Shown: in pieces, positions 905 to 27,634 of the stretch | Position numbering within the stretch: position 1 is the first letter of the stretch | Layout: every line of letters starts with the position of its first letter | NCBI GenBank assembly: GCA_028691405.1 | Contig: JAQUZI010000001.1 | Coordinates: forward strand, 6,015-33,648 | From: Minisyncoccota bacterium | Lineage (GTDB): Bacteria > Patescibacteriota > Minisyncoccia > UBA6257 > JAKLIH01 | Length of the DNA: 27,634 bases | Direction of reading: 5' to 3' | Notes under the pieces: model-generated | Told to the model about the DNA's origin: nothing | The model's input: only the letters and a program-made list of their open reading frames with translations | Databases searched by the model: none | Made by a program: the position numbers and the translations under genes

Positions 905-1369
905 ATGGATCTTATCGTTGATGAAAAAAAATATAAAGCTGATGGTAAATACAAAAGCCCTATTGTAACTAAATTAATCAATATGATTATGGAGTGTGGT
1001 AAAAAAACCATTGCTCGTAGAAATATTTATAAAATGATTGATATTCTTGAACAAAAAACCAAAAATGATGGGTTATTTGTTTTAGAAACAGCTTTAAAAA
1101 ATGTTGGGCCAACGCTTGAAGTTAAAAGTAAAAGAATTGGTGGTGCTAACTATCAAGTTCCTGTTATTGTTTCAGGTCAAAGACGCTTAACTTTAGCTAT
1201 GAGATGAATTATTGATTTTTCTCGTTCTCAAAAAGGAAAACCAATAAGTGAAAAATTAGCTAATGAAATAATTGCAGCTTTTAGAGGTGAAGGTAATGCC
1301 ATTAAGAAAAAACAAAATGTTCATAAAATGGCTGAAGCTAATAAAGCCTTTGCTCATTTTGGCAGATAA
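905..1369 (+). CDS. rpsG: 30S ribosomal protein S7 (154 aa; TGA 1205-1207 = Trp)
   Basis: RIGGANYQVP, LAMR-W-II, HKMAEANKAFAHF; stop TAA at 1367-1369. Confidence 0.97.
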
Positions 1370-1400
1370 TATATTTTAACAAATATTTAAAAATTTAATC

Positions 1401-3518
1401 ATGTCTCAAGAATATCCTCTTGAAAAAATACGTAATATTGGTATTATTGCTCATATTGATGCTGGTAAAACAACTACATCAGAACGTATTTTGTTTTATA
1501 CTGGTCTTTCTCATAAAATTGGAGAAGTTCATGAAGGCGCAGCTGTTATGGACTGGATGGAACAAGAAAGAGAAAGAGGTATTACTATTACCTCAGCTGC
1601 TACTACTTGTTTTTGAACAACAAGTTATAGAAATAATGATGAAAATTATAAATATAAAATCAATGTTATTGATACTCCCGGACATATTGACTTTACCGCT
1701 GAAGTTCAACGCTCTTTGCGTGTTTTAGACGGTGCTGTTGTTGTTTTTGACGGTGTTGCTGGCGTTGAGCCTCAATCAGAAACTGTTTGAAGACAAGCAG
1801 ATAAATATTTAGTCCCTCGCTTATGTTTTGTCAATAAACTTGATCGTATGGGTGCTGATTTTGACAATGATTTAAATATGATCAAAGAACGTTTAACTCC
1901 TAATGCTGTTGCTTTAACTATTCCAGTTGGCAAAGAGGCTAATTTTGAAGGTGTTATCGATTTGATTAGAATGAAAAAAGTTAATTTTGAAGGTCAACTT
2001 GGTGAGAAATTAGTATTATCTGACATTCCAGAAGATATGAAAGAAATATCTCAAAAGAGAAGAGATGAATTGATTGAAAAAATTGCAACAGAAGACGACT
2101 CCTTAATGGAAAGATATTTAAATGGAGATACCAATTTTACCGAAGAAGAATTAAGAGCATCTTTAAGAAAATCAGTTATTGATTATAAAATTGTTCCTGT
2201 TTTATGTGGTTCTGCATTTAAAAACAAAGGTGTTCAATTAATGCTAGACGCTGTTGTTGACTTTTTACCAAGTCCATTAGATGTTAAACCCGTTGAAGGA
2301 GATAATCTTAAAGGTGAAACCATTGTTCGTAAGGCAGATGAAAAAGAGCCATTTTCTGCTTTAGTATTTAAAATTGCTACCGATCCATATGTTGGTACAT
2401 TATCATTTTTCCGTGTTTATTCTGGTAGATTAACCAAAGGTTCTTATTTATTAAATTCAAATAAAAACAGTCAAGAGAGAATTGGTCGTATTCTCCGTAT
2501 GTTTTCTAGCAAAAGAGAAGACATAGATGATATTGAAGCTGGTGATATTGCTGCTACTGTTGGTTTAAAAAATACCAAAACAGGTGATACATTGTGTGAT
2601 CCAGATCATCCAATTGTTTTAGAAAACATTTCTTTTCCTGATCCAGTTATTTGATTGAAAGTTGAACCTAAGACTAAAAGCGACCAAGATAAAATGGGGG
2701 AAGCTTTGAAAAAATTATCTGATGAAGACCCTACCTTCCAAATTAAAACTGACGAGGAAACCAATGATACTATTATTGGTGGTATGGGTGAATTACATCT
2801 TGATATTTTAATTGATCGTATGAAACGCGAATTTAATGTTGAACTTAACTCTGGTAAGCCACAAGTTGCTTATCGAGAAACAATCAATGGTACAGCTGAA
2901 GCTGAAGGTAAATATATTCGTCAATCTGGTGGTAAAGGCCAATATGGTCATGTTTGATTAAGAGTTGAACCACTTGAAAGAGGCAAAGGCTTTGAGTTTG
3001 TTAGCCAAATTAAAGGTGGTGTTATTCCACAAGAATTTATTTCTTCAGTTGAAAAAGGATCTAAAGAAGCTACTGATAAAGGTATTTTAGCTAATTACCC
3101 AATGTCTGATTTAAGAGTTACTCTTTATGATGGATCTTTCCATGACGTTGACTCATCTGATTTTGCTTTTAAAATTGCCGCTTCTATGGCTTTTCAAGAT
3201 GCAGCTAAAAAAGCTCAACCAGCTATTCTTGAGCCAATTATGAAATTAGAAGTAACTACTCCAGAAAACTTTTTAGGTGATGTTATTGGTGATATTAATT
3301 CCAAACGTGGACGTATTGAAAAAATGGATGAACGCATGGGGTTACGTATTGTTGATTCATTAGTTCCACTTTCAGAGATGTTTGGTTATGCAACCAATTT
3401 AAGATCATTTACTGAAGGTAGAGGTACATTTAGTATGGAATTCCATAGTTACCAAGAGGTTCCAAAAAATATTGCTGAGGATATTATTTCTAAAAGAAAA
3501 CCAACTGCAAAAGAATAA
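1401..3518 (+). CDS. fusA: Elongation factor G (705 aa; 4 TGA = Trp)
   Basis: [48 protein letters not shown]. One continuous frame when TGA at 1614, 1788, 2652 and 2955 is read through. Confidence 0.98.
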
Positions 3519-3525
3519 ACGATAG

Positions 3526-3554
3526 CTCCGCAAGAATTTTTAATTCTTGCGGAG
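3526..3554 (+). terminator. Perfect 12-bp hairpin after fusA; possible terminator or processing stem
   Basis: ctccgcaagaat/attcttgcggag. No clean U-tract immediately after. Confidence 0.55.
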
Positions 3555-3615
3555 TCTCATTGTTTATTTTCAAAAAATTTGGTTTAATTTAAATATATAT
3601 TTAAATATATTTATT

Positions 3616-25306: not shown

Positions 25307-25323
25307 TAGTTTAAAAACTAATA

Positions 25324-26217
25324 ATGCATATCCCTGTTCTTTTAAAAGAAGTAATTGAAGGTTTGAATCCTAAAGAGGGTCAAAACTATATTGATTGTAC
25401 TTTAGGCGAAGGAGGGCATAGCTTGGAAATATTAAAGAAAATATTACCAAGTGGGAAATTGCTAGGCATTGATTTTGATTCAAGGAACATAAGTCTATCT
25501 AAAGAATTATTTAATAATTCAGGTATAAAAGAAGATAATTATACATTAGTCAATGATAATTTTAAGAATTTAAATGAGATTGTTGAGCAAAATAAATTTG
25601 AAAATATATCTGGTATTTTATTTGATCTAGGTCTTAATAGTTATTTCTTAGATGAAAGCAAAAGAGGTTTTTCTTTTAGGTTTGATGAATTTCTTGATAT
25701 GAGATTTGATCCAAAAACGTCTTTAACAGCTCATGATATTGTTAATAAGTTTCCTAGAACAGAATTAGAAAACATTTTATTAGATCTAGGTGAAGAGACT
25801 TTTTACAAACAAATAGCAGCTGAAATTATTAAAACACGTAAAAATCAAGAAATTAAAACCACCTATGATTTAAATGAGATTATATATAAGTCTACCCCTA
25901 GATGATACAAGCATCGGAAAATCCACCCTTCAACTAAAACTTTTATGGCTTTAAGAATATATGTTAACCAAGAATTGGAAAATTTAAAGACAGCAATAGA
26001 AAGTGCATGTGATATTGTTTCTTGCCATGGAAGAATAGCGATTATATCATTTCATTCATTAGAAGATAGAATTGTAAAAACATATTTTAAAGAATTAGTT
26101 GATAAAAAAGAGTTTAAACACATAAATAAAAAAGTAATAGTTCCTAAATGAAGTGAAATTAAACAAAATAAAAGAAGCCGTTCGGCTAAATTACGTATTA
26201 TTGAAAAATTAATTTAA
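25324..26217 (+). CDS. rsmH: 16S rRNA m4C1402 methyltransferase RsmH (297 aa; 2 TGA)
   Basis: [65 protein letters not shown]. Confidence 0.97.
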
Positions 26218-26239
26218 AAAATCAATTAAACATAATCTT

Positions 26240-26650
26240 ATGACAGTAAATAGCTTTTATTATCAAAAACCAAATTCAACAACATTACTTCCTAATTTAA
26301 ATATTAAGAGGGTAAGACGAGTCGGTAAAAGTTATTTATCCAATAGTAGTAAAGGTGGTTTTGTTTCAAGCGTCTGGTTATTTTTAATTGGCATTTTAGT
26401 TATTGTAGGAACAATCTTTATTTGTTCTCAATCAATGAATGGTGATTTAGACTATCGCATTACTGAAGCTAAGGGCAGATTAAAAGCTTTAGAAATTGAA
26501 AATGCAGAATTAAAAACAAATTTAGTTAAAAATATTTCTCCTGAACATATTTCTTCATGAGCTAAAGAAAATAATTTTGTCAAAAACAATAATTTTTCAC
26601 ATTACAGTATAGACCAAGTTAAAACTTTATCTCTAAATACAAATAACTAA
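26240..26650 (+). CDS. FtsL-like bitopic membrane protein (136 aa; TGA 26558 = Trp)
   Basis: One TM segment followed by a coiled-coil heptad region; canonical position between rsmH and a PBP. No sequence signature recognised. Confidence 0.65.
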
Positions 26651-26667
26651 TATTTTTAACTATTTTT

Positions 26668-27634
26668 ATGAAAAAGTATAAAAATTGAACAAGTAACAGT
26701 TTAATTAATAAAAATCATACAAAAATATTGCAAATTGGTTTTGCAATAATCTTTGTATCGATTTTTTTGTTTTTATTTAAATTGCAAGTTTTACATGATG
26801 AAAGCATGTCCGAAGCGAGTAATAAAGATGATAATATTCAACACACAACTAGCGCGCAAAGAGGAAATATATACTTTACTGATAAGTCAGGATCATTAAT
26901 CCCAGTAGCTATTAATAAATCATACAAAACAATTGCAGTTGATCCTAAAACATTACAACGCGATAATGAAGTAGAAATTGCTGCCAAATTATTATCCCCA
27001 ATTGTTAATATTTCAGAAGAAGATTTATTAAAGGTTTTTAATAAGAAAAATTCTCAGTATGAAGTTTTAATTAAAAAAACAGATAATGAAGAGCTAATTA
27101 AACAAGTTGAAAGTATTAGAGCTAAAGATGGTGAAGGGTTTAAAACAATCAGGGGAATTACCATTCAAGAAGAATTTGAACGCTATTATCCTTTTAAAGA
27201 CTTAGCTTGTCATACTATTGGCTTTGTTGCTAATAATGAAGACAATGAAAGTAAAATAGGGGTTTATGGCCTTGAGAAATACTATAACGATATTCTTGAT
27301 GGCAGTGAAGGTGTTTTTAGTGGCTATAAAGATGCAGCTGGTCGTTTAATCAGATCACTTGCATCCCAAGAAAAACTACCAATCAATGGAGATTCATTAA
27401 TCACAACAATTGATAAAAATATTCAATATCAAGCCGAAGAGACAATAAAGAATTTAGTAGAATCACGTAAAGCCTCTTCCGGGTCTGTATTAGTTATGGA
27501 TGTTGTATCTGGTAAAATGCTAGCCATTGCTAATTATCCTAGCTTTGATCTTAACAAATTTTTTGACGTTGAAGACTATTCTATTTATCGTAATTTAGCT
27601 ATAGAGTCTCCGCTTGAAATGGGTTCGGTTATGA
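26668..27634 (+). CDS. Class B penicillin-binding protein, FtsI-like (partial, runs off the window)
   Basis: N-terminal TM, RGNIY, RYYP, IG.YGLEKYY, TTIDKNIQ, VMDV.SGKMLAIANYPSFD. Window ends at EMGSVM, the start of the expected SxxK motif. Confidence 0.92.

Follow-up and report, generated by a model that had tools for sequence, protein, structure and literature searches.

The DNA stretch analyzed here, hereafter the window, comprises 27,634 nucleotides (nt) of contig JAQUZI010000001.1 (positions 6,015 to 33,648 of the forward strand) from the Minisyncoccota bacterium assembly GCA_028691405.1, and the subject of the analysis is the meaning of its in-frame UGA codons, which a preliminary description of the window had read as tryptophan. 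Gene identities were assigned with Pfam, and the residues at individual sites were taken from tblastn comparisons with related loci. The window starts with a str/S10/spc ribosomal-protein region; several further genes come next, and then a dcw (cell-division/cell-wall) cluster begins. Its 5′ part contained rpsL, rpsG, fusA, two HTH-like genes, tuf and the S10/spc run through rplO, in this order. Downstream of rplO, secY and genes for an MFS transporter, a Cu-oxidase_4 protein and a HAD hydrolase were found, followed by adk, map, ruvX and murB; 3′ of murB, genes for a small basic protein and an MscS channel preceded mraZ and rsmH.

UGA codons and stop codons in the window

Under translation table 11, the plus-strand genes of the window were fragmented, EF-G into five pieces, while table 4 yielded 40 uninterrupted plus-strand genes. 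A total of 47 in-frame TGA codons, spread over 23 genes, and 8 TGG codons were counted in these 40 genes, the open reading frame (ORF) at 5294–5557 being excluded. The 39 genes ending within the window had TAA (36) or TAG (3) as the stop codon and never TGA. The preliminary description had estimated about 46 TGA codons in 22 genes and about 7 TGG, which is close to the recount; the sites it had singled out (1205, 1614, 1788, 2955, 8019, 9619, 9839, 11502, 13740, and 25217) are in-frame TGA codons without exception, and its statement that the 39 genes end in TAA or TAG agrees with the codon count.

Amino acid encoded by UGA

Window genes were translated with X at TGA and compared by tblastn with 64 related loci, each covering up to 10 kb on either side of rplB, with one genome per GTDB species. 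Opposite the TGA codons of the window, tryptophan occurred 519 times and glycine 2 times across all 64 loci. In the 54 standard-code loci, tryptophan made up 55% of the 905 residues aligned with these codons, and it was the residue in 10 out of 10 conserved columns, a conserved column being one in which at least 15 loci agreed at 80% or more. The same procedure returned glycine for the control codons GGN, tyrosine for TAT, and arginine for CGT and AGA.

One locus, L063 (CAZCNE010000002.1, 24% G+C, labelled ‘Candidatus Peribacteria’), served as an unplanned control for UGA encoding glycine: its ribosomal-protein region contained 202 in-frame TGA codons, 128 of which stood opposite glycine of the window. 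Thus, the method separates glycine-encoding from tryptophan-encoding UGA. Because of these 128 matches to glycine, L063 is assigned to table 25, and the label given to it in NCBI is probably incorrect. Nine loci with 61–92% amino acid identity to the window (L001–L008 and L050) had TGA at the window's TGA sites; in the next relatives, whose identity was 54% or lower, TGG occupied these sites. Taken together, the alignments firmly identify UGA as a tryptophan codon in the genome of the window. The preference of the preliminary description for tryptophan over glycine was therefore justified.

The agreement was clearest in the ribosomal proteins. In rpsG (S7, 905..1369, PF00177), the TGA at 1205 was matched by tryptophan in 15 related loci; in rplD (L4, 7830..8477, PF00573), those at 8019 and 8073 were matched in 48 and 47 loci, respectively. 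The single TGA codons of rplB (L2, 8878..9717; TGA 9619), rpsS (S19, 9743..10030; TGA 9839), rplP (L16, 11304..11714; TGA 11502) and rplF (L6, 14130..14717; TGA 14376) stood opposite tryptophan in 44, 45, 44 and 30 loci, respectively. The rpsC gene (S3, 10576..11250) contained one TGG and four TGA codons (10627, 10639, 10663, and 11209), at three of which tryptophan was found in 47, 50 and 50 loci. In rpsQ (S17, 11923..12174), the column at 12148 had tryptophan in 31 loci and phenylalanine in 14.

The gene of the zinc-type S14 protein, rpsN (13560..13745, PF00253), had TGA as its last sense codon (13740), and its 3′ end reads AGT-TGA-TAA, the TGA coinciding with the conserved terminal tryptophan. 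The corresponding gene ended with serine, tryptophan (TGG) and a stop in 39 of 41 standard-code loci and with serine, TGA and TAA in all seven recoded relatives. Other sites were less telling. Of the four TGA codons in fusA (EF-G, 1401..3518, identified by its EF-G domains; TGA 1614, 1788, 2652, and 2955; one TGG), only two, at residues 72 and 130, had tryptophan as the commonest residue. Among rplN, rplX and rplE (L14, L24 and L5; 12237..13522), rplX contained no TGA, and the codons at 12321 (rplN) and 13307 (rplE) fell in variable lysine/arginine columns and were uninformative. The secY gene (16261..17532, PF00344) had TGA at 16330, 16597, 16702 and 16876, in hydrophobic or aromatic columns (leucine, tyrosine, isoleucine, tryptophan) with glycine occurring once.

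Genome-wide signal

The assembly containing the window (G000) was 509 kb in length, consisted of 54 contigs, was 56% complete and had a G+C content of 28%. Over the whole assembly, ORFs with a minimum length of 100 amino acids (aa) had a density of 0.549 with table 11 and of 0.840 with table 4. The latter table gave counts of 1111 in-frame TGA and 303 TGG codons, UGA being the majority tryptophan codon with about 79% genome-wide. The tryptophan content of the whole assembly was 0.99%, a normal value, with TGA counted as tryptophan, and 0.17% under table 11. The ORF density and the tryptophan content of the whole assembly indicate that the pattern of in-frame TGA codons is not due to chance.

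Phylogenetic position

In the tree of 18 concatenated ribosomal proteins (2691 columns), the window and seven well-covered recoded relatives, L002 among them, formed one clade with a support of 100. This clade was nested among standard-code Paceibacteria/Parcubacteria metagenome-assembled genomes (MAGs), and L063, the glycine control, was placed far outside. The nearest relatives were all Patescibacteria/Paceibacteria MAGs. The preliminary description had suggested a Parcubacteria-like lineage with an independent reassignment, and both suggestions stood: the position is within Paceibacteria/Minisyncoccia and not within Mollicutes, and the recoded clade lies among standard-code relatives, far from L063. 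The presence of murB (22107..23075, PF02873 and PF01565; three TGA and two TGG codons), which is a peptidoglycan gene, shows that the organism is cell-walled and is not a Mollicute.

The GTDB family of the window contained 12 species-level genomes in five genera. Locus L002 (JAKLIH010000004.1), from assembly JAKLIH01 (isolate RA.bin82), was 100% identical to contig C42 of genome G063, which shares its listed genus and family with G000; L002 and the window shared 79% amino acid identity and 18 TGA sites. Because of this identity, we place the genome of the window, presumably correctly, in GTDB family JAKLIH01 and in the same genus as the namesake assembly of the family. The family name itself was taken from the accession prefix, which we assume to follow GTDB naming practice; it was not read from GTDB. 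The EF-G genes of G000 and nine other family genomes contained in-frame TGA codons (two to five in each); of the other two family genomes, one contained a 293-residue EF-G fragment without TGA, and in the other EF-G was not found. The habitats were landfill, sludge and bioreactor metagenomes.

In NCBI, many Paceibacteria-type ‘binchicken’ co-assembly MAGs carry the label ‘uncultured Candidatus Saccharibacteria bacterium’. They grouped with Paceibacterota/Parcubacteria in the ribosomal-protein tree, and such labels are unreliable.

Release factors

The sole full-length release factor encoded in G000 was release factor 1 (RF1), with the PVT motif and a score of 417.9 bits on NF001859 (cut-off 400). 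A match at the level of release factor 2 (RF2; TIGR00020) was found in none of the 12 family genomes; of the 11 besides G000, nine were at least 90% complete. An RF1-level match was present in 10 of the 12, and that gene itself contained one to four in-frame TGA codons. Outside the family, 77 genomes representing 31 families of the same order were sampled, and 73 of them had an RF2-level match. RF2 has thus been lost in family JAKLIH01; loss of its gene, prfB, had been named in the preliminary description as a point to check. A second RF-1-domain match at the end of contig C36 was considered as a possible prfB remnant and rejected: 28 residues separate its start codon from the GGQ motif, which makes it an ArfB-like fragment and not RF2.

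Tryptophan tRNAs and tryptophanyl-tRNA synthetase

ARAGORN identified a tRNA-Trp(CCA) gene on contig C54 of G000. Genes for tRNA(UCA) were present in five family members (G083, G037, G086, G087, and G088) and had the A1-U72 pair, the G73 discriminator and the anticodon stem of the family's tRNA-Trp(CCA). In G037, G086 and G087, the UCA gene was located 3′ of tRNA-Thr(UGU), tRNA-Tyr(GUA) and tRNA-Thr(GGU). The same slot in the standard-code outgroup G021 was occupied by tRNA-Trp(CCA), with 86% full-length identity to the UCA gene of G086; the UCA gene is thus the ancestral tryptophan gene with a C34-to-U change. One gene for tryptophanyl-tRNA synthetase (TrpRS) was found in each of the three relatives checked.

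The main-type tRNA(UCA) was 86% similar over 56 nt to the neighboring tRNA-Thr(UGU), which prompted the idea of a Trp/Thr recombination chimera between tandem genes. This idea was rejected because the tRNA-Trp(CCA) genes of the standard-code outgroups G021 and G009 share the D and T arms and have 84–86% full-length identity to the UCA gene, whose body is that of the ancestral tryptophan tRNA.

Two tRNA-Trp body types were observed in the family, carrying CCA or UCA in different members. Most members had UCA in the ancestral Thr-Tyr-Thr-Trp slot and a gene of the second type with CCA elsewhere. In G088 (loci L076 and L096), the slot gene had CCA and the UCA gene adjoined tRNA-Gln, opposite to what was seen in genera g1 and g2; in G083 (loci L079 and L075), the UCA and CCA genes were 92% identical. 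This distribution of CCA and UCA over the two body types raises the possibility, to which we give somewhat less than an even chance, that the C34/U34 state moved or was re-created between tryptophan tRNA genes on more than one occasion since the reassignment.

Outside the window, at C43:20471–20545 of G000, ARAGORN annotated a tRNA-Ile(UAU) beside two tRNA-Ile(GAU) genes.

Other genes of the window

Between fusA and tuf, two weakly HTH-like proteins of 279 and 259 aa (3547–4386 and 4403–5182, plus strand as all genes described here) were encoded, with sub-threshold Pfam HTH matches only and three TGA codons each, at positions common to the closest relative, L001. Among the 64 related loci, only L001 had both genes, and the pair resembles an insertion specific to this lineage, the operon being conserved in other respects. 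The gap of about 400 nt before tuf (5184–5589) contained no credible ORF; the ORF at 5294–5557 (87 aa, five TGA codons) matched no Pfam family and is unlikely to be a gene. The tuf gene (EF-Tu, 399 aa, 5590..6789) contained neither TGA nor TGG, and the same was true of 16 other genes of the window. The L23 protein was long (129 aa), with an N-terminal extension. No L30 gene was present between rpsE (S5) and rplO (L15), at 15756–15780; the absence of L30 is typical of Patescibacteria.

In the 3′ part of the window, the MFS transporter gene (17569..18756, PF07690) contained five TGA codons and adk (adenylate kinase, 20250..20921, PF00406) three TGA and one TGG. The 77-aa ORF at 23232–23465 had no Pfam match. 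The region 24875..26650 encoded mraZ (PF02381, three TGA), rsmH/mraW (PF01795, two TGA) and a small unassigned ORF in the ftsL position with one TGA and one TGG; an open-ended ORF (26668..27633), taken from the ORF list, reached the end of the window and had TGA at 26686. With gathering thresholds, Rfam gave no match in the window.

Alternative explanations

Several observations count against the assignment of UGA to tryptophan. About half of the testable TGA sites were variable columns and uninformative, and all of the support is comparative. A tRNA(UCA) gene was not found by ARAGORN in the 56%-complete assembly of G000, nor was a TrpRS gene found in this assembly. In the Logan contigs, the anticodon was not readable, the depth around the tRNA being dominated by tRNAs of other organisms.

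As to the tRNA, contig C45 of G000 starts exactly at tRNA-Thr(UGU), where the relatives continue with tRNA-Tyr, tRNA-Thr(GGU) and tRNA(UCA), and it aligned at 89% to G086 sequence lying beyond this cluster; the UCA gene of G000 most likely lies in an assembly gap. In the Logan contigs of the four landfill runs holding the window, the homologous tRNA stretch was covered at a depth and divergence matching the G000-type flanks: the 396-nt X4 contig aligned to positions 1488–1888 of the G086 cluster at a depth of 23.6 and about 9% divergence, its differences near the tRNA being below the threshold for listing.

The tRNA(UCA) gene missing from the assembly and the fragmented appearance of the genes under table 11 also fit the view that TGA codons are real stops, located in pseudogenes, produced by assembly errors or partially read through without reassignment. 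We consider this extremely improbable, as the 47 codons interrupt essential genes, including those of ribosomal proteins, EF-G and SecY, and nine independent assemblies of related species have TGA at the same sites. No gene ends in TGA, RF2 is absent from the 12 family genomes, and the tryptophan content is normal only if TGA is included. Another possibility, that UGA encodes glycine as it does under table 25 in Gracilibacteria/JAEDAM01 and Absconditabacteria, concerns the same codon in the same phylum, and according to the available text of the gTranslate paper (PMC13695967), gene calling by GTDB and other tools makes no distinction between tables 4 and 25. It is contradicted by the near absence of glycine opposite the window's TGA codons and by the ten conserved tryptophan columns; the acceptor and anticodon-stem features shared by the family's tRNA(UCA) and tRNA-Trp(CCA) and the distant branching of the true UGA-to-glycine genome, L063, leave it hardly any probability.

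It may also be asked whether the code is as described and belongs to a separate, undescribed table 4 clade, and hence is novel. The NCBI titles of the relatives, which are uninformative or wrong (‘uncultured Candidatus Saccharibacteria’), and the derivation of the family name from naming practice leave some room for this. We nevertheless regard it as very unlikely in view of the identity of L002, from the namesake assembly, with a genome of the same genus and family as G000, the TGA sites common to L002 and the window, and the naming of JAKLIH01 in both published accounts cited below.

Judged from the sequence comparisons, the window almost certainly represents the str/S10/spc-to-dcw region of a walled, uncultured patescibacterium of Minisyncoccia/Paceibacteria, family JAKLIH01, using table 4. 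Its decoding may be pictured as follows. RF2, the reader of UGA, has been lost in the family, and RF1 terminates at UAA and UAG. A tRNA-Trp(UCA), present in five relatives and presumably also in G000, would read UGA and probably, through wobble, UGG as well; it would derive from the ancestral tRNA-Trp(CCA) of the Thr-Tyr-Thr-Trp cluster via the C34-to-U change, with a second tRNA-Trp(CCA) gene kept for UGG. A single TrpRS would charge both tRNAs. The low G+C content (28%) and the small genome appear to fit the classical codon-capture route.

Comparison with known systems

The reassignment of UGA to tryptophan in the genome of the window is real and has already been published for family JAKLIH01 (Nucleic Acids Research, April 2026, doi 10.1093/nar/gkag327, PMC13092985). 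The available text of that paper bases it on four genomes with a Codetta signal; two of them contain a tRNA(UCA), RF2 and UGA stops are absent, and the origin is given as single. According to the corresponding text on gTranslate (bioRxiv, 28 May 2026, 10.64898/2026.05.24.727570; PeerJ, 22 October 2026, PMC13695967), UGA encodes tryptophan in 12 further JAKLIH01 genomes and in genus GCA-2747955. The 2021 Codetta survey did not mention this reassignment for family JAKLIH01. The preliminary description had left it undecided whether the case had been reported; these two papers answer that it had, which removes the novelty and leaves the code standing. As far as the available texts describe it, the published case (JAKLIH01, order UBA6257, class Minisyncoccia, phylum Patescibacteriota) is the same as ours in lineage, codon and meaning, and also in the UGA columns aligned with tryptophan, the tRNA(UCA), the lack of RF2 and of UGA stops, and the single origin.

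The window is thus one more species-level example, with some details of tRNA genes, and no discovery, the reassignment having been in print since April 2026. Relative to what the available texts of the two accounts contain, our analysis adds the in-frame TGA codons of EF-G in 10 of 12 species-level genomes and the lack of RF2 in all 12, as well as the position of the UCA gene in the ancestral tryptophan slot and the way in which CCA and UCA are divided between two tRNA-Trp body types. The habitat, namely landfill, sludge and bioreactor metagenomes, is a small addition. Table 11 mis-annotates JAKLIH01 genomes badly: the ORF density of 0.84 drops to 0.55 and essential genes seem broken, so annotation of the contig of the window must use table 4. 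The family is a useful natural case for the study of UGA capture in small, AT-rich genomes.

In the table 4 lineages of Mycoplasmatales and endosymbionts, RF2 is lost and a tRNA-Trp(UCA) mostly stands beside the CCA gene or replaces it. These lineages resemble JAKLIH01 in the tryptophan meaning of UGA, RF2 loss, low G+C content and small genomes, but they belong to another phylum and the origin is independent. Unlike them, the organism of the window keeps murB, mraZ and rsmH, and it occurs in landfill, sludge and bioreactor communities and not in animal or insect hosts. The introduction of the gTranslate paper, in its available text, names Mycoplasmatales and the endosymbionts Hodgkinia, Zinderia, Nasuia, Stammera and Pinguicoccus as such lineages (PMC13695967).

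The table 25 lineages, Gracilibacteria/JAEDAM01 and Absconditabacteria, share with JAKLIH01 the phylum, the withdrawal of UGA from termination and the loss of RF2; they differ in that UGA encodes glycine there and tryptophan in JAKLIH01, and L063, which uses their code, branches elsewhere. With JAKLIH01, Patescibacteria have three codes in one phylum, namely tables 11, 25 and 4.

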